From Hydrocarboniphaga sp. (lineage in GTDB: Bacteria; Pseudomonadota; Gammaproteobacteria; Nevskiales; Nevskiaceae): a stretch of 64,000 nt of DNA. Below the pieces are notes generated by a model that did no database searches, was not told where the DNA came from, and worked only from the letters and a program-made list of their open reading frames with translations. The stretch spans positions 4,271,322 through 4,335,321 of the forward strand of contig NZ_OZ257125.1 of NCBI RefSeq assembly GCF_965279055.1, written 5' to 3'. The position numbers and the translations under genes were made by a program. Positions 14,430-45,802 of this stretch are shown one piece after another; position 1 is the stretch's first letter, and each line of letters begins with the position of its first letter.

Positions 14430-14445
14430 TCAACAGCGTTGTTCA
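14430..14445. promoter_or_regulatory. Candidate operator RACA-N4-TGTY
   Basis: tcAACAgcgtTGTTca between the divergent ACAD and enoyl-CoA hydratase genes. Confidence 0.65.
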
Positions 14446-15535: not shown

Positions 15536-15551
15536 GCAACACTGCTGTTTC
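15536..15551. promoter_or_regulatory. Candidate operator RACA-N4-TGTY
   Basis: gcAACActgcTGTTtc upstream of mmsA. Confidence 0.55.
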
Positions 15552-21711: not shown

Positions 21712-21727
21712 CCAACACTATTGTTGA
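21712..21727. promoter_or_regulatory. Candidate operator RACA-N4-TGTY
   Basis: ccAACActatTGTTga upstream of the MFS gene. Confidence 0.6.
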
Positions 21728-30330: not shown

Positions 30331-30346
30331 GCAACAGCGGTGTTCA
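30331..30346. promoter_or_regulatory. Candidate operator RACA-N4-TGTY
   Basis: gcAACAgcggTGTTca upstream of the CoA-transferase. Confidence 0.6.
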
Positions 30347-33581: not shown

Positions 33582-33650
33582 CGGCGGGCGCGACCCGCCC
33601 TACAAAAGCGGATGGCATCACACGGCGGGTCACGCCCCGCCGGCTTTTTG
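33582..33650. terminator. Paired GC hairpins, possible terminators between convergent genes
   Basis: GGCGGG..CCCGCC followed by ACAAAAG, and CGGCGGG..CCCGCCG followed by CTTTTT. Confidence 0.45.
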
Positions 33651-35261
33651 CGGCCCATGAAACCGCGGCCGTTGTGCCAGCCGTTTCGCCACCTCCGGAT
33701 AACGCTCCGGACGCAGGTTGCCGTACATCGAGATGCGCAGCGACTCCTCGGCGAAACGCCGCGCCAGCGGCGCCAGATCCTGAGTCGCACCGTATTGCGC
33801 GCGCGCCCACACCGGCCACAGGAACACACCGGCGAGCGTAATCACCGACAACACTTCGGTATCGACGTTGTCCTGCGACAGCGCGGTGGAATCGAAGCGC
33901 TCCGCCGAGCTGCGGTATTCACGCCAGAACAGATCGCGTGCCGGCTCCGGCGACGACAGCACATTCAGCAGCCAGGCGCGGCACAGCTCCGGGTTGTCCA
34001 TCGCGAAACCGGCGAGCCGGTCGCTCAAGGCCGCGACGTCGACCGAGCCGACCTTGCGGTCCTTGGTGGCGCCGGCGGGCCCGAACACCGCCTGAAACAG
34101 TTTCTCCGATACGCCGACCGCGGCCGCCGCGATCAGCTGGTCGCGCGTCTTGAAGTGCTGGTATGCAGTGCCGCGATTGACGCCGGCAATGCGCGCCACC
34201 TCGGCCAGGCTCAGGCCTTCGGGGCCGTCGTGCGCCAGGCAGCGTCGCGCCGCCTGCAGGATCGCTTCCCGCGTGCTCGCGGGGTCCGGCGAACGGCGCG
34301 GCTTGCGCGCTGACGCGGCGCGTTTCCGCACCGGCCGCGACCCTGGTGATGAGTCCCGCAATCTGATGGCACGACTCGCACTCGTACGCGAGGGCCGCAG
34401 CAGCGACTGCTGCGGCGTCGCACCGCCGAGCAGCTCCAGCTCACAACTCGAGTTGTAGGCCGACAGCAGCGCGGCGAGCTGTCGCTGCAGCTGCGCCAGC
34501 GACACGGAGCCGCGCCCGTCCACGGCCGCGGCGGCGATGGTCCGGTTCATGCGCTCGACCTGCGCGCCGGTCCAGCGCTGGCGCAGCTTCAGGCCGCGCT
34601 GGCGGATACCCGCGTCGGCGCAGGCCGGTGCAAACGAGGCATCGGCGGCGATTGTCTCGTCGGCCATCAGGCTACCGATGCGGCCCGGCACCGCGGCGAT
34701 CAGCGCGGCGACGAATTCGACCGCCGACGCCGCAGCGCCGGCGTCGTATAGCTGCGCAAATGCGTAACGGCTGCGCCGCTCGACCGCGACGATCAGCTGG
34801 TAGCGGCGTTTTTCGCCGAGTTGCGCGCTGCTCAGGTCGAAGCACAGCCCTTCGGCAGACCCGGCCGCAGCCTCGTCGCCGCTCGCGGGCAGACGCGAAA
34901 TGCCGTGCCGCTGCAGGCAGCGGTGCAGCGATGAACGGCTCAGCTGCGGAATGAAGCCACGCAGAGCCTGCAGACAGCCGTCGAGCGGCAGGCGCAGATG
35001 CTGGCGCAAGGCGACGACGATGCCCTCCTCGCGCAGGCTCAGGGCCGAGGAGCGCGGATCGCGCGGGCCCGGCTTGCGATCGTCCGGCGATGCACGGCGC
35101 CGCCATTTGGCGACGGTTTTCGGATTGAGCCCGTAACGCAGGGCCAGCTGGCGAATGCTGTCGTCACTGTGCCGGATCGCATGCCGTACTTCGGCGGGGC
35201 TACGCCGCAGCTGCTTCATCGATCGCACCCGATCAGGATTGGACAGGGTCTTTTGTACCAT
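33630..35261 (-). CDS. IS481-type transposase (HTH + RNase H/integrase core) fused in frame to a TetR-family regulator
   Basis: aa 1-290: RYGLNPKTVAKWRRR, GPRDPRSSALS, LPLDGCL..L...IPQLSRSSLHRCLQRHGISRLP, QVERMNRTI, AYN...L.G.TP (IS481 hallmarks). aa 319-543: TREAILQAA...GLSLAEVARIAGVNRGTAYQHFKTRDQL (TetR). One uninterrupted frame. Confidence 0.88.
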   Translation of the reverse strand: MVQKTLSNPDRVRSMKQLRRSPAEVRHAIRHSDDSIRQLALRYGLNPKTVAKWRRRASPDDRKPGPRDPRSSALSLREEGIVVALRQHLRLPLDGCLQALRGFIPQLSRSSLHRCLQRHGISRLPASGDEAAAGSAEGLCFDLSSAQLGEKRRYQLIVAVERRSRYAFAQLYDAGAAASAVEFVAALIAAVPGRIGSLMADETIAADASFAPACADAGIRQRGLKLRQRWTGAQVERMNRTIAAAAVDGRGSVSLAQLQRQLAALLSAYNSSCELELLGGATPQQSLLRPSRTSASRAIRLRDSSPGSRPVRKRAASARKPRRSPDPASTREAILQAARRCLAHDGPEGLSLAEVARIAGVNRGTAYQHFKTRDQLIAAAAVGVSEKLFQAVFGPAGATKDRKVGSVDVAALSDRLAGFAMDNPELCRAWLLNVLSSPEPARDLFWREYRSSAERFDSTALSQDNVDTEVLSVITLAGVFLWPVWARAQYGATQDLAPLARRFAEESLRISMYGNLRPERYPEVAKRLAQRPRFHGPQKAGGA

Positions 35262-35370
35262 CTATTTGCGGGATCTCGAAATCGGCGCCTCGCCCTCGCG
35301 GTGCATGCGGATCATCGGCCTGTACAACAGCAGGTTTCAAACACCACGACGATTGACGCCTGGATTTCCA

Positions 35371-35388
35371 ATGAACAACCATGTTCAT
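35371..35388. promoter_or_regulatory. Candidate operator, perfect 7-bp arms
   Basis: ATGAACA-acca-TGTTCAT between the divergent fusion gene and SDR. Confidence 0.7.
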
Positions 35389-35455: not shown

Positions 35456-36208
35456 ATGACAGCAGTGCTTGCGGGCCGCGTGGCGCTGGTCACCGGCGCA
35501 TCGTCCGGCATCGGCGAGGCGACGGCGCTGGCACTGGCCGCGGCCGGCGCCAGCGTGGCACTGTCGGCACGGCGCGAGCAGCGGCTGCATCAGCTGGTGC
35601 AGCGCATCGAATCCCATGGTGGCAAGGCGCTGGCGCTGTCCGGCGACGTCGCCGACGAGGCGGTCGCCACCGCGGCGGTGGAAAAGACCATCGCGCATTT
35701 CGGCCGTATCGACATCCTGGTGAACTCGGCCGGCATCATCCAGGCCGGCGGCGTCGAGAATGTCGACACCGACGAGTATCGGCGCGTGATCGACATCAAC
35801 CTGCTGGCGACGGTTTACACCTGCCGCGCCGCGATCGCCGCGATGAAGGCGCAGGGCAGCGGCGACATCATCAACATCTCGTCGCTGGCCGGACGCAAGG
35901 CCGCCAAGCTCTTCAATGCCTATACCGCCAGCAAGCATGCGCTGAACGCGATGACCGACGCGATGCGCCAGGAAGTCGGCGGCTTCGGGATCCGCGTCTG
36001 CATCATCAATCCAGGCGCGACCGCGACCGCGGTGTTCGAGAACGTCAGCGACCCGAAGATGCGCGCGACGATGCAGCAGCACGTCGGCAAGGACGGTGCG
36101 ATGGCAGCCGGCGATGTCGCCGAGGCGGTGCTGCTGGTCGTCAGCCTGCCGCGCCGCACCAGTATTTCCGAGCTGTCGATCCGCCCCACGATCGATACCT
36201 CGGCTTGA
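35456..36208 (+). CDS. SDR (YdfG-like)
   Basis: TGASSGIG, VNSAG, YTASK. Confidence 0.9.
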   Translation: MTAVLAGRVALVTGASSGIGEATALALAAAGASVALSARREQRLHQLVQRIESHGGKALALSGDVADEAVATAAVEKTIAHFGRIDILVNSAGIIQAGGVENVDTDEYRRVIDINLLATVYTCRAAIAAMKAQGSGDIINISSLAGRKAAKLFNAYTASKHALNAMTDAMRQEVGGFGIRVCIINPGATATAVFENVSDPKMRATMQQHVGKDGAMAAGDVAEAVLLVVSLPRRTSISELSIRPTIDTSA

Positions 36209-36240
36209 ACCACGAAGAATCCGTAGAAGGAAACCCACGC

Positions 36241-37056
36241 ATGAAAGACATCGAGTTCATCGACCTGTCGCCGCGCATCGCCACCGAAATCCGCGTCAGC
36301 CAGGAAACGCTGCTGAGCGGCAGGCGCGCACAGGAGATCCGCGCGCAACTCGAACAGCGCGGCGTCGTCGTGTTCAAGCAGATCCATCTCGACGACGAGC
36401 AGCAGGTGGCCTTCGCCGGCACGCTCGGCGAAATCATCCCGCAAGGCAACAAGGGCATCTACAAGGTCACGCTCGACAAGAAAGAAAACGACAGGGCCGA
36501 CTATCTGCGCGGTGCGTTCTACTGGCATATCGACGGCACCACCGACGACGTGCCGACGCGCGCCTCGCTGCTGAACGCGCGACGCCTGTCACCGACCGGC
36601 GGCCAGACCGAATTCGCCAACACTTACGCCGCCTTTGATGATCTGCCGGAGTCGGAGAAAAAGGCGATTTCCAAGCTGAAAATCGTGCATCACGTCGAAA
36701 CCATACAGCGCAAGATCTACGACGCGCCGACGCCGGAACAGGAGGCGAGCTGGAAGCGCTATCCGCCGAAGGCGCATCCGCTGGTATGGAATCACCAGAG
36801 CGGCCGCAAGTCGCTGGTGCTGGGCTCGACCTCCTCGCATGTCGAAGGCATGGATCCGGAAGCCGGCCGCAGGCTGATCGAGGAGCTGACCGCCTGGGCG
36901 ACGCAGCCGCAGTTCGTCTACCAGCATCAATGGACCTTGGGCGACCTGCTGATCTGGGACAACACCGGCACGATGCATCGCGTCGTGCCCTACCCGCTCG
37001 ACAGCGGCCGCATGATGCATCGCACGACCCTGGTCGCCGAAGAAGCGCTGGTCTGA
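36241..37056 (+). CDS. TauD/TfdA-family Fe(II)/2-oxoglutarate dioxygenase
   Basis: WHIDG facial triad, GGQTEFANT, WDNTGTMHR, MHRTTL; ATG 36241. Confidence 0.9.
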   Translation: MKDIEFIDLSPRIATEIRVSQETLLSGRRAQEIRAQLEQRGVVVFKQIHLDDEQQVAFAGTLGEIIPQGNKGIYKVTLDKKENDRADYLRGAFYWHIDGTTDDVPTRASLLNARRLSPTGGQTEFANTYAAFDDLPESEKKAISKLKIVHHVETIQRKIYDAPTPEQEASWKRYPPKAHPLVWNHQSGRKSLVLGSTSSHVEGMDPEAGRRLIEELTAWATQPQFVYQHQWTLGDLLIWDNTGTMHRVVPYPLDSGRMMHRTTLVAEEALV

Positions 37057-37096
37057 TTCGCGCTGACGACACGCGCTCACACACGAGAGAAACCGC

Positions 37097-37849
37097 ATGG
37101 GACGTCTGGCAGGCAAGGTTGCGCTGATCACCGGTGCCGGCTCCGGCATGGGCAAGGAGATGGCGCTGCTGTTTGCGCGTGAAGGCGCGCAAGTGGTCTG
37201 CGCCGATCGCAGCGGCATGCAGGACAGCGTCGCGGCCGCGATCGGCGAGGCCGCGGTCGCAGTGCACGCCGACGTCGCGCTGAGCGCCGACGTGCAGAAC
37301 ATGATCAAGCTGGCCGAGCAGCGCTTTGGCCGCCTCGACGTGCTGGTCAACAACGCCGGCTTCGGCGGCGGCATGGCGCCGTTGCACGAGCAGACCGAAG
37401 CACTCTACGACGACGTTCAGGCGGTGAACCTGAAAGGCGTGTTTCTCGGCATGAAATACGGCATCGAGGCGATGCTGCGCAGCGGCGGGGGCGCCATCGT
37501 CAACACGGCTTCGGCGGCCGGCCTGATAGGCTGGAAGAACCACAGCGTCTATGGCGCGGCCAAAGCCGGCGTGGTGCAGATGACACGCAGCGCCGCGCTC
37601 GAATATGCGCAGCAGAACATCCGCATCAACGCGATCTGTCCCGGCATGGTCTGGACCGGCCTGGTGAAAGCCTCGGCGATCCATGCGACGCCGCCGCCGG
37701 ATGCGCGGCCACCGTTCGGCGTCGCGATGGGCCGCTGGGGCCTGGCCACCGAACTCGCCGCCGCCGCGCTGTTCCTGGCCAGCGACGAGGCCTCGTACAT
37801 CACCGGCGTCGCGCTGCCGGTCGACGGCGGGTACGTCGCGGGGCACTAA
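37097..37849 (+). CDS. SDR
   Basis: TGAGSGMG, NNAG, YGAAK. Confidence 0.9.
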   Translation: MGRLAGKVALITGAGSGMGKEMALLFAREGAQVVCADRSGMQDSVAAAIGEAAVAVHADVALSADVQNMIKLAEQRFGRLDVLVNNAGFGGGMAPLHEQTEALYDDVQAVNLKGVFLGMKYGIEAMLRSGGGAIVNTASAAGLIGWKNHSVYGAAKAGVVQMTRSAALEYAQQNIRINAICPGMVWTGLVKASAIHATPPPDARPPFGVAMGRWGLATELAAAALFLASDEASYITGVALPVDGGYVAGH

Positions 37850-38100: not shown

Positions 38101-39798
38101 GTGCAGCACTGGGACGAGACTTTCGACTTCGTCGTCGCCGGCTGCGGCGGCGGCTCGATGTGCGCGGCGCTGGTGATGCGCGCCGCCGGCAGGTCGGTGC
38201 TGATCCTGGAAAAGACCGCGCTGCTCGGCGGCACCACGGCGCGCTCCGGCGGCGTGATGTGGATACCGAACAATCCGGTCATGCAACGCGACGGCATCGC
38301 CGACAGCTTCGATGCCGCGAGCCGCTATCTCGACCAGGTCTGCGGTGACGCGGTCGATGCGCCGGGCGCGACGCCGCTGCGCCGCCGCACCTATCTCGAG
38401 CAGGCGCCGCGCATGGTCGAGTTCCTGATCCGCCAGGGTCTGCGCTTCACGCGCGTGCGCGAATGGCCGGACTACTACGACCAGCTGCCCGGCGGCTCGG
38501 TGCCGGGGCGCACCGTGGTCGCCGAGCTGTTCGATCTCAAGCAACTCGGCGACTGGGCAAAGCGGCTGAGGCCGAGCTTCATCGTCGCGCCGCTGCCGGC
38601 AACGCTGGAAGAAATGATGGAGCTGCCTGCATACAAGCGCTCCTGGCAGGTCCGGCTGCTGATGCTGAAACTAGCGCTGCGCCTGTTGCTGGCCAAGTTC
38701 AGTGGCAAGCATTGGGTCGCCGGCGGCGCGGCGCTGCAGGGCCGCATGCTGCAGGCGGCGCTGAAAGCCGGCGTCGACATCCGCAGCGAGGCGCCGGTCG
38801 GCGAGCTGATCGTCGAGGACGGCGTCGTCACCGGTGTGCTGACGATCAGGGACGGCAGGCCCTGGCGCGTCGCCGCAAAGCTCGGCGTGCTGGTCAACGC
38901 CGGCGGCTTCGCGCGCAACCAGGCGATGCGCGACCGCTACGCGCCCGGCACCTCGGTGAAATGGAGCATGGCCGCGCCCGGCGACACCGGCGAAATGATC
39001 GAAGAGATGCAGCGCATCGGCGCCGCGCTCGCGCAGATGGACGAACGGGTCGGCAACCAGATCACGCTGCCGCCCGGCGCCGAGGACAGCGAAGCCAAGC
39101 CGACCGTGCAGGCGATGACCGCGGCGCCGCATTGCATGCTGGTCGACCAGAGCGGCGCGCGCTACATGAACGAAGGCGGCTCGTACATGGCCTATGCCAA
39201 GGCGATGCTCGAGCGCCATCGCAGCGTGCCGGCGGTGCCGAGCTGGGCGATCTTCGACAGCCAGTACATGCAGCGCTACATGCTCGCCGGCACGATGCCC
39301 GGCAGCAGGAAGCCGCAAAGCTGGTATGACTCCGGCTACCTGAAAAAGGCCGACAGCATCGAGCAGCTCGCCGCGCTGCTGGACATCGATCCCGCCGCGC
39401 TGGGCGCGACGCTTGCACGCTTCAACGGCTTCGTGTGCCGCAACTGCGACGAGGATTTTCATCGAGGCGAGAGCGCCTACGACCGCTGGCTCGGCGACTG
39501 GCTGCATCGGCCGTCGCCATCGCTGGGCAGCATCGAGCGCGCGCCGTTCTACGCGGTCGCGGTATACCCCGGCGACGTCGGCACCTACGGCGGCGTGGTC
39601 ACCGACGAACATGCGCGCGTGCTGCGCGCCGACGGCTCGGTGATCACCGGGCTCTACGCCACCGGCGTATCCACCGCGTCGGTAATGGGCCGCGCTTATC
39701 CCGGCGCCGGCAGCAGTGTCGGCCCGTCCTTCACCTGGGCTTATGTCGCGGCGATGCACGCGGCGCGCCTCGATCCGCTGCATCTACACGAGGTATGA
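38101..39798 (+). CDS. 3-ketosteroid-delta1-dehydrogenase-like FAD-binding protein
   Basis: GGTTARSGGVMWIP, WPDYY, AGGF, RYMNEGGSY, GDVGTYGGVVTD, GLYATG, YPGAG. Confidence 0.85.
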   Translation: MQHWDETFDFVVAGCGGGSMCAALVMRAAGRSVLILEKTALLGGTTARSGGVMWIPNNPVMQRDGIADSFDAASRYLDQVCGDAVDAPGATPLRRRTYLEQAPRMVEFLIRQGLRFTRVREWPDYYDQLPGGSVPGRTVVAELFDLKQLGDWAKRLRPSFIVAPLPATLEEMMELPAYKRSWQVRLLMLKLALRLLLAKFSGKHWVAGGAALQGRMLQAALKAGVDIRSEAPVGELIVEDGVVTGVLTIRDGRPWRVAAKLGVLVNAGGFARNQAMRDRYAPGTSVKWSMAAPGDTGEMIEEMQRIGAALAQMDERVGNQITLPPGAEDSEAKPTVQAMTAAPHCMLVDQSGARYMNEGGSYMAYAKAMLERHRSVPAVPSWAIFDSQYMQRYMLAGTMPGSRKPQSWYDSGYLKKADSIEQLAALLDIDPAALGATLARFNGFVCRNCDEDFHRGESAYDRWLGDWLHRPSPSLGSIERAPFYAVAVYPGDVGTYGGVVTDEHARVLRADGSVITGLYATGVSTASVMGRAYPGAGSSVGPSFTWAYVAAMHAARLDPLHLHEV

Positions 39799-44990: not shown

Positions 44991-45205
44991 GTCTTTGCTC
45001 TCTCCACGATTCGGGCCGATCGGCGGCGGCTCCCAGGGCAAACGATCTTCGACCGCCGCCTCGTCGCCCGCAACGGCGTTCGGATACGACGACCGGACAC
45101 AATGTCGCGGTCGGGACGTTGCCGTCGCCGGCACCGCGGCGTCTATGGACCCGGCATCGGCGGCGGGCGATGCTGGCGCCCGTCCGTTCATGCAAGCCTG
45201 GGTCA

Positions 45206-45802
45206 ATGAGCAGCCGAATCCCGCAGAAGCCGCGCAGCCGCAACCCGGTACAGACCCGTGCCCGGCTGCTGCAGGCGACGATCGACCTGGTCGCCGAAAA
45301 AGGCGCCGACGCGCTGTCGCTGAAAGAGGCCGCGCGCGTGGCCAAGGTCAGCCGCGGCGTCGCCTACCAGCATTTCGACGACCGCGATCACCTGCTGCGC
45401 GAGGCCAAGGCCTGGCTGTCGGAGCGCCTGAGCGAATCGCTGCATGGCGAACTCGACCCGGCGACGATGGAGGATCGCGTCTACGGCGTGGCGCGGCAGG
45501 TGATGAACAACCGCGAGGCCTCGCGACTGCTGATCGCCGACGCGATGGCCGGCAAGGATCTGCAGAAAGACCATCCGCTGTACCGCCTGCTGCTCGACTC
45601 GCTGGAGCGGTTCAGGACCAGTGGCAATGCGCGCCAGGACATGGATCTGGAAATCCTGTCCTCGATCCTGGTCGGAGTGGTCGCTTCTATCATCATGCTG
45701 AGTTATCAAGACAACAGTGATGTCGATAAGATGGCGCGGCGGTTTACTGCCGAATGGACTCGCATCCTTCGCCACGGGATTTTCGTGGAGCCTCCGGCCT
45801 GA
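45206..45802 (+). CDS. TetR-family regulator
   Basis: TRARLLQATIDL...LSLKEAARVAKVSRGVAYQHF; ATG 45206. Confidence 0.9.
   Translation: MSSRIPQKPRSRNPVQTRARLLQATIDLVAEKGADALSLKEAARVAKVSRGVAYQHFDDRDHLLREAKAWLSERLSESLHGELDPATMEDRVYGVARQVMNNREASRLLIADAMAGKDLQKDHPLYRLLLDSLERFRTSGNARQDMDLEILSSILVGVVASIIMLSYQDNSDVDKMARRFTAEWTRILRHGIFVEPPA
45711..45726. promoter_or_regulatory. Candidate operator inside the 3' end of tetR
   Basis: acAACAgtgaTGTCga, exact match, in an AT-rich coding stretch. Confidence 0.45.

Follow-up and report, generated by a model that had tools for sequence, protein, structure and literature searches.

Architecture of the fusion gene

The stretch analysed here, called the window, is a piece of 64,000 nucleotides from the genome of Hydrocarboniphaga sp. 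(assembly GCF_965279055.1, contig NZ_OZ257125.1, positions 4,271,322 to 4,335,321 of the forward strand); coordinates are those of the window, except that the prefix C1 marks positions in the genome. On its minus strand lies a gene in which a transposase of the IS481 family of insertion sequences (IS) is joined in frame to a regulator of the TetR family. A first-pass annotation, made from the sequence alone, had described one stop-free frame of 543 aa at this position, and the region 33630-35261 (-) was indeed a single open reading frame of this length without an internal stop. The gene and the parts of its transposase side are the following:

33630-35219 (-): fusion gene as read from M15, its probable start (529 aa and the stop codon); a further 14 codons are open on the upstream side, to 35261
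34908-35195 (-): two transposase-derived helix-turn-helix (HTH) domains (aa 23-118, including RYGLNPKTVAKW and SRSSLHRCLQRHGISR), supported by Pfam, AlphaFold2, identity and the ratio of non-synonymous to synonymous substitution rates (dN/dS)
34392-34886 (-): decayed RNase H-like (aspartate-aspartate-glutamate, DDE) core, aa 126-290, with the catalytic columns S144/D201/E236, supported by AlphaFold2, Foldseek and alignment
34287-34391 (-): disordered linker, aa 291-325, from the transposase part to the TetR part, supported by the predicted local distance difference test (pLDDT) and a dN/dS of about 1

Translation probably starts at M15 (ATG 35217-35219), which would yield a product of 529 aa. 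In favour of this start, M15 is aligned with the MGQV at which real IS481-like transposases begin, and the nominal M1 ATG belongs to a DNA motif, conserved and non-coding, after which stops occur in relatives; the protein called for this window in the database (P0001) also has 529 aa.

Both halves, which the first-pass annotation had read from their motifs, were recognised by hidden Markov models (HMMs). The NCBIfam model transpos_IS481 (NF033577) matched aa 30-285 over positions 10-282 of its 284 (E 1.7e-42, 145.9 bits), a score below the curated cutoff of 224 bits that leaves the protein outside the IS481 transposases by score. The transposase C-terminal tail had been described as absent; this did not hold, as the family HMM was covered nearly to its end and the right end of the IS persists as linker DNA. 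Pfam HTH_28 and HTH_29 matched the N-terminal half, with transposase-type HTHs at aa 25-71; the Pfam scan of the fusion protein gave no rve match, and rve_3 was weak and below its gathering score. In the C-terminal half, TetR_N covered aa 334-380 with 47.9 bits (cutoff 24), identifying the HTH of a TetR regulator.

The AlphaFold2 model, for which a 43-sequence family alignment was the input (mean pLDDT 84), showed two HTH domains (aa 23-55 and aa 76-118, helices with pLDDT >90) and, with high confidence, an RNase H-like fold of five strands plus helices at aa 139-272. A disordered stretch (aa 293-321, pLDDT <50), in agreement with the linker proposed in the first-pass annotation, separated this half from an all-helical TetR body (aa 327-529), in which the helices of aa 384-529, with pLDDT of about 85-95, form the ligand and dimerisation domain. 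Foldseek searches of the PDB retrieved the IS21 transposase IstA (8b4h) and retroviral integrases with the transposase side, and many TetR regulators (e.g. 1ui5, 3ppb and RamR, TMt 0.6-0.7) with the TetR side. The GC content at third codon positions was 0.79-0.87, like that of the neighbouring genes, as had been noted before, and the codon composition matched that of the host. Together, these results establish that the chimaeric architecture, an IS481-family transposase half followed by a linker and a complete TetR half, is real.

Catalytic decay and selection on the transposase half

The three catalytic residues, D (FHIDI), D (TDNG) and E (QVERMNRT), were invariant in 30/30 real transposases. 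In the corresponding columns of 43 fusions the first D was found in 6, the second in 8 and the E in 11, and the three together in 0/43. The first-pass annotation had placed D142, D201 and E236 at the catalytic positions; D201 and E236 do occupy the second D and the E columns, but the alignment put D142 two residues upstream of the first column, which holds S144, and D142 was rejected as the first catalytic residue. A segment of about 20-30 aa after the second D was also absent from most fusions, and is still present in the Sphingobium clade. Compared with real transposases, the fusions were 58-61% identical over the HTH region and 31% over the core; P47, K48, T49, W53, R109, L112 and R114 were invariant in the HTH region, and the recognition-helix residues of the fusions were invariant and identical to those of active transposases. 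By sequence, the N-terminal half is a catalytically decayed IS481-family transposase, predicted to be nuclease-dead, that has kept both HTHs and the RNase H-like fold and has lost the DDE triad.

It is very improbable that DDE nuclease or transposase activity, ligand-gated or not, persists in the protein, or that the gene reflects a recent insertion or an assembly artefact. Such readings could draw on D201 and E236 in two of the catalytic positions, and on D142 lying on the same strand as the first, two residues away. Against them stand S144 in the first column, the loss of the outer TGTTT termini and of the CTAG duplication, a single copy in a genome that has no IS481 paralogue, a codon composition like that of the host, and the recurrence of the fusion, with its synteny conserved, in over 40 independent assemblies; because so many assemblies carry it, the junction was accepted. 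The ligand-gated DDE nuclease considered in the first-pass annotation is disfavoured because the triad is in register in 0/43 family members.

Pairwise dN/dS ratios were obtained by the Nei-Gojobori method (NG86) for the window gene and three relatives. They were 0.14-0.27 for the transposase HTHs, 0.39-0.62 for the RNase H-like core, about 1 for the linker, 0.05-0.10 for the TetR HTH and 0.07-0.22 for the TetR ligand domain. As judged from these ratios, the transposase HTHs and the TetR half are under purifying selection.

A further alternative is that the N-terminal half is a passenger with no function of its own, whose frame stays open since translation of the TetR part needs the upstream start, so that selection bars only stops and frameshifts. 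We regard this as unlikely. The lost triad, the dN/dS of 0.4-0.6 in the core and about 1 in the linker, and N-half branches much longer than those of real transposases all fit a passenger; moreover, no in-frame start with a ribosome-binding site was found conserved in the linker upstream of the TetR part, so that the dependence of the TetR part on the upstream start is real. A passenger would, however, leave unexplained the low ratios of the HTHs and the identity of their recognition helices with those of active transposases, an RNase H-like fold that is still confidently predicted, and the conservation of the IS inverted repeats, described below, at non-coding and synonymous positions. The architecture has also outlasted a divergence as deep as that of the whole clade of stand-alone TetRs, though one deletion could remove the N-terminal half. 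Our reading, to which we assign a probability of roughly 0.7, is that the fusion is a domesticated, nuclease-dead transposase-TetR regulator.

Relics of the inverted repeats of the insertion sequence

A position weight matrix (PWM) built from 53 distinct IS left ends was scanned over the window on both strands. Its two best matches are relics of the IS inverted repeats (IR) and bracket the transposase-derived 0.9 kb:

34347-34372 (+): IRR', right-IR relic in the linker codons (RAIRLRDS), reading TGATGAGTCCCGCAATCTGATGGCAC; best PWM match in the window
35255-35280 (-): IRL', left-IR relic 35 nt upstream of M15, reading TTCGAGATCCCGCAAATAGATGGTAC and containing the nominal M1 ATG; second-best PWM match

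The first-pass annotation had seen no inverted-repeat pair here; IRR' and IRL' form an imperfect one (pair I7), of 19 nt, 79% complementary and 882 nt apart. The IR core [AG]TCCC-N7-NNTGG[TC]AC had exactly two matches in the 5.07-Mb genome, namely IRR' and IRL'. The spacing between IRL' and M15 reproduces the geometry of active IS481 elements, in which the core ATCCC-N7-GATGGTGC lies at the same distance from the start codon, and the presence of the IS right end as DNA in the linker codons means that the element is represented end to end.

Among 11 fusion loci, a left relic ending in TGGTAC was found 8-44 nt before the start in nine; most of these relics retain the full IS register, (A/G)TCCC-N7-nnTGGTAC, and that of L093 equals the IS end at 19/29 positions. 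The right relic, CGTACCA-N8-GGGAy, occurs in 6/11 loci, including the deeply diverged L092 and L093. It is always written with the rare arginine codon CGT (14-21% of the arginine codons in these genes), and an alternation between R and W (CGG/TGG) retains its GGGA. The constancy of CGT and the R/W exchanges that keep GGGA speak for a constraint on the DNA and not on the peptide alone. From the conservation of both relics we infer that the ex-transposase HTHs may bind them.

The N-terminal half might instead act by a route other than the IR relics, through oligomerisation of its core or through other DNA or protein partners, TGGTAC being kept as a promoter or peptide-coding element. In support of this idea, TGGTACAAn resembles an extended -10 element (TGnTAnnnT), IRR' was lost in several members that kept the N-terminal half, and the core fold is retained. 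However, ATCCC, 7 nt upstream in the IS register, is conserved as well and is left unexplained by a -10 element, the motif recurs inverted in the linker with the rare CGT codon, and the only two genome-wide matches to the core flank the gene's own N-terminal half. We consider this alternative to be rather improbable, and favour the binding of the relics by the HTHs.

The sequence TGTTGTACA, taken as an eroded left end in the first-pass annotation, was rejected as such: the PWM places the relic at 35255-35280, and TGTTGTACA is part of a clade-specific block (TGTACAGG), conserved in the closest clade only, between the palindrome described in the next section and IRL'. The same TGTTGTACA lies in the spacer of a weak sigma-70-like site at 35311-35340 (-) (TTGAAA-18-GATGAT), no other being called in the intergenic region; if this site is a promoter, IRL' would be located in the 5' untranslated region. 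As a separate observation, the IR core would be expected about 16 times in 5.07 Mb from base composition and was found twice, so that the motif itself, or the GTAC within it, may be depleted here.

A candidate TetR operator and a probable regulon

Upstream of the fusion gene, a divergent operon encodes two short-chain dehydrogenases/reductases (SDR) and a dioxygenase. The features on this side are the following:

35372-35387 (no strand): perfect palindrome TGAACAACCATGTTCA (equal to TGAACAnnnnTGTTCA), candidate TetR operator, overlapping the presumed -10 region of the divergent SDR promoter
35353-35358 (+): TTGACG, -35-like hexamer facing the SDR gene, 13 nt before the palindrome; putative promoter element
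35456-37849 (+): divergent operon, the putative target, with SDR at 35456-36208, TauD/TfdA-family dioxygenase at about 36238-37056 and SDR at 37097-37849, assigned by Pfam and NCBIfam
38101-39798: KstD-like flavoenzyme, 3' of the SDR-TauD-SDR operon, assigned by Pfam/NCBIfam with 669 bits against a 789-bit cutoff

The palindrome TGAACAnnnnTGTTCA is the only perfect 16-mer of its kind in the genome, and a form of it was present in 10/11 fusion loci, including one with a TonB-receptor context. In 9/11 loci GTCAA(T/A), which is TTGAC read on the other strand, is found at a distance of 13-17 nt from the palindrome; the consensus promoter scan called no promoter for the SDR operon. The core of the palindrome, AACA-N4-TGTT, was strongly enriched beside stand-alone TetR homologues without a transposase part (1-4 sites per locus, with at most 0.3 expected), which have the identical recognition helix VNRGTAYQHF. 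Because stand-alone TetRs sharing the recognition helix are accompanied by this core, the palindrome was assigned to the TetR half, of which it is likely to be the operator.

Genome-wide, 18 AACA-N4-TGTT sites were found, compared with 10 for a control pattern, and 11 of the 18 fall in one 132-kb island, C1:4232893-4364710. Five are in the window (14432-14443, 15538-15549, 21714-21725, 30333-30344 and 35374-35385), all of them intergenic and 50-130 nt upstream of plus-strand genes. This clustering makes it probable that the fusion and its TetR paralogues share a regulon over the catabolic island.

Two stand-alone paralogues deserve mention. One, at about 45182-45784 (+) of the window, is 38% identical to the C-terminal half of the fusion (about 34% over the TetR part, tblastn). 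The other, at C1:4364809-4365468 (-), has 49% identity (about 49% by tblastn as well) and the identical recognition helix, and a site reading AACAGCAGTGTT lies about 100 nt past its 3' end.

Distribution, synteny and age of the family

A search of 5.8 billion proteins returned about 45 full-length homologues of 450-565 aa with 39-74% identity, among them those of Phenylobacterium sp. LjRoot225 and Sphingobium sufflavum, and when 1.84 billion cluster representatives were scanned exhaustively with HMMER, end-to-end matches came from about 17-20 clusters (at 50% identity). The source names of the homologues were 'AcrR/TetR family regulator' or 'transposase-like', and the labelling of these proteins in databases as plain 'TetR family regulators' is a misannotation that our analysis flags. 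In its own complete genome (one contig, 5,073,662 bp) the fusion gene is present in single copy, and a search of this genome revealed no further IS481-like transposase, only paralogues of the TetR half. The fusion was missing from 60 relatives of the same genus, family or order, which implies that it belongs to an accessory island. None of the PLSDB plasmids searched carried it, and a scan of genome contigs yielded stand-alone TetRs and real IS copies only, without fusion loci.

The gene context, a check that the first-pass annotation had proposed, is conserved in most members of the family. In nine contigs (L087, L088, L089, L090, L092, L093, L095, L105 and that of P0016) the fusion is divergent from SDR-(TauD)-SDR, and the three closest relatives keep the entire layout of the window, with SDR, TauD, SDR, the KstD-like flavoenzyme, GFO/IDH/MocA, DUF3237, aldo-keto reductase and glyoxalase on one side, and acyl-CoA ligase, coenzyme A (CoA) transferase, MarR, thiolase and an MFS transporter on the other. 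In a sub-clade (P0024, P0032) the fusion faces a TonB-dependent receptor instead. As a side observation on this locus, a GC-rich hairpin followed by a T-run at 33623-33642 (+) overlaps the stop codon of the fusion, between the convergent acyl-CoA ligase and fusion genes, and may serve as a terminator shared by the two.

In the maximum-likelihood tree of the TetR half, 21 stand-alone TetRs formed one clade (99/99) and the 42 fusions were all on the other side, while in that of the N-terminal half a single branch (96/92; 97% of bootstraps) parted the fusions, with branches several-fold longer, from 38 diverse real transposases. Both topologies agree with one old fusion event. Single-copy orthologues are found in a conserved context across taxa, as is characteristic of a domesticated transposase. 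The view of the first-pass annotation, that this is an old and selected fusion and not a recent insertion, was borne out by the approximately 45 homologues, the conserved synteny, the single-branch trees, the purifying selection and the single copy.

Origin of the fusion

The closest real elements are ISs of about 1.0 kb, with nothing but the element in contigs L020 and L022. On the left these elements show CTAG|nTGTTTGATCCCACGGTTTGATGGTGC, the ATG lying about 30 nt further on, and on the right ...CCGGGACTGAACAC|CTAG. The reading frame of the transposase reaches the last base of the element, and its stop codon, TAG, comes from the duplicated CTAG target. In ISRe46, of the IS481 family, the stop codon is likewise provided by the CTAG target (PMC6794481).

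The stand-alone TetRs of the subfamily begin with M-x-x-(R/K)n-DP-x-x-TREAIL, equivalent to aa 310-335 of the fusion. Since these starts map to about aa 310, a complete TetR gene was captured. We propose that an IS of this group would have inserted directly in front of a stand-alone TetR gene, both pointing the same way, and that the TAG of the CTAG duplication would then have been lost; because the IS has no stop codon of its own and borrows that of the target, its transposase frame would read through into the TetR gene. To judge from the IS anatomy, the fusion probably arose by such read-through. The fusion locus has lost the CTAG duplication as well as the outer TGTTT termini, and retains of the IRs only the subterminal cores.

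With regard to the promoter of the captured gene, an upstream block conserved in L007, L009 and L010 (TTGGACCGGAyGCTG...GCGCATAnTCTAGGCTGCCG) contains a CTAG. The upstream block of the fusion aligns weakly with the promoter regions of these stand-alone TetRs, and AGGCTGCCGA is shared with the region upstream of the L089 fusion; the similarity, weak as it is, may represent a remnant of the ancestral TetR promoter.

Other proteins bear on this route. P0259 (617 aa, from one 6.4-kb metagenome contig) has an IS481-like N-terminal half, without an rve match, in frame with a complete LacI-family regulator, and shows the same read-through route giving other regulator fusions. As a family of its own the IS481-LacI chimaera was rejected, since it is a singleton with no homologue of the same architecture. 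In P0134 (407 aa) and P0047 (418 aa), the same TetR subfamily lies behind an N-terminal zinc-ribbon of an IS1595-type transposase, and these two diverged members suggest a second, independent capture of a transposase domain.

Proposed mode of action

Our best explanation, again held with a probability of about 0.7, is a single-copy, conserved chimaera of read-through origin that binds both a TetR operator and the IR relics and uses its dead core as a scaffold. The TetR half would dimerise and repress the divergent SDR-TauD-SDR operon by binding TGAACAnnnnTGTTCA at its -10 region, and would probably also bind other AACA-N4-TGTT sites of the surrounding catabolic island. A metabolite of the pathway would release it from the DNA; the KstD-like, SDR, TauD-family and CoA ligase/transferase neighbours suggest an alicyclic or steroid-like substrate for this pathway. 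Of the two relics, IRL' marks the 5' end of the gene itself and IRR' lies in the linker codons, 0.9 kb further downstream; both would be bound by the ex-transposase HTHs, leading to autoregulation and possibly to a DNA loop. The dead core would be a spacer or an oligomerisation scaffold. The additional DNA-binding or looping role imagined in the first-pass annotation is consistent with the retained HTHs and the IR relics.

More tentatively, the protein may form what could be called a 'fossil synaptic complex', with the HTHs on both IR relics and the TetR dimer on the operator, about 90 bp upstream of IRL', in a ligand-responsive loop that would couple autoregulation to the catabolic operon.

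Several observations weigh against the best explanation. The pairs from which dN/dS was computed have a dS of 0.6-1.4, and NG86 is crude for GC-rich genes; the 0.4-0.6 of the core denotes a weak constraint. IRR' is missing in 4-5 of the 11 loci (L090, L095, L096 and L106; altered in L105), and IRL' is not clearly recognisable in L089 and L096. The conservation of TGGTACA could stem from a role as an extended -10 promoter element and not as a binding site, and the linker motif R-T-x3-R/W-D could reflect a peptide constraint. Finally, the closest stand-alone TetRs (L007-L012) were checked and an AACA-N4-TGTT site was found near none of them, so that the operator assignment rests on the L002-type group.

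As a prokaryotic example for a classical DDE transposase, this family is clean and datable: the group of donor ISs can be identified, the missing stop codon of the IS explains the route to the fusion, and catalysis was lost while the DNA-binding domains stayed under selection. It makes testable how multi-domain regulators and their binding sites arise together, and it indicates that IS481 elements can add DNA-binding modules to host genes by a mechanism that may recur.

Comparison with known systems

The domestication of transposases into transcription factors is well documented in eukaryotes. For bacteria, our literature searches turned up only the TnpB-derived TldR as a case of this kind, and full-text searches found no described DDE-transposase-TetR regulator.

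The stand-alone TetR paralogues (C1:4364809-4365468; L007-L012, L014, L025 and others) are 46-67% identical to the TetR half and share with it the VNRGTAYQHF helix and a basic N-terminal arm, and the L002-type ones adjoin the same AACA-N4-TGTT palindromes; they differ in their length of 229-250 aa, in lacking a transposase half and in forming a separate clade (99/99). Active IS481 elements of about 1.0 kb (L020, L022 and others) have the same HTH-HTH-DDE order, with 43-44% identity over the N-terminal half. Unlike the fusion, they are multicopy, with an intact triad, TGTTT termini, a CTAG duplication and proteins of 330 aa that score above the cutoff. The fusion is thus set apart from the IS481 transposases by score, triad, termini and copy number, and is a TetR regulator by sequence and predicted structure.

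For IRL', the proposed model is that of InsA of IS1 and OrfA of IS911, in which an N-terminal transposase HTH binds the left IR overlapping the transposase promoter and autoregulates; these proteins, however, are encoded by active mobile elements, and no host regulator is fused to them.

TldR (PMC10705468, PMC13622181) resembles the fusion in its history: a nuclease encoded by a bacterial transposon lost its catalytic activity and came to serve as a transcriptional repressor. TldR derives, however, from the RNA-guided TnpB and not from a DDE transposase, is itself RNA-guided, has no ligand-binding regulator fused to it and does not use IR relics as cis sites.

The closest conceptual analogue is SETMAR (Metnase), in which the primate Hsmar1 mariner transposase is joined to a SET domain, likewise an in-frame capture of a DDE-type transposase in a single-copy gene. 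SETMAR is described in PMC9062482 as retaining binding to its ancestral terminal inverted repeats (TIRs). SETMAR differs in being eukaryotic, in belonging to the Tc1/mariner superfamily and in carrying the transposase on the C-terminal side of the host domain; its TIR sites are scattered over the whole genome, whereas the fusion has only two relics, which flank its own N-terminal half, and the partner in the fusion, unlike that of SETMAR, is a ligand-sensing one-component repressor. What is novel here, as read from the sequence, is that the relics of both inverted repeats of the IS persist as candidate cis elements. If the three-site loop described above is true, the family would be a bacterial counterpart of SETMAR and the first prokaryotic DDE-derived transcription factor with the element's own ends as cis elements, and the stop-borrowing of IS481 would be a general generator of such fusions, of which P0259, P0134 and P0047 would be examples.

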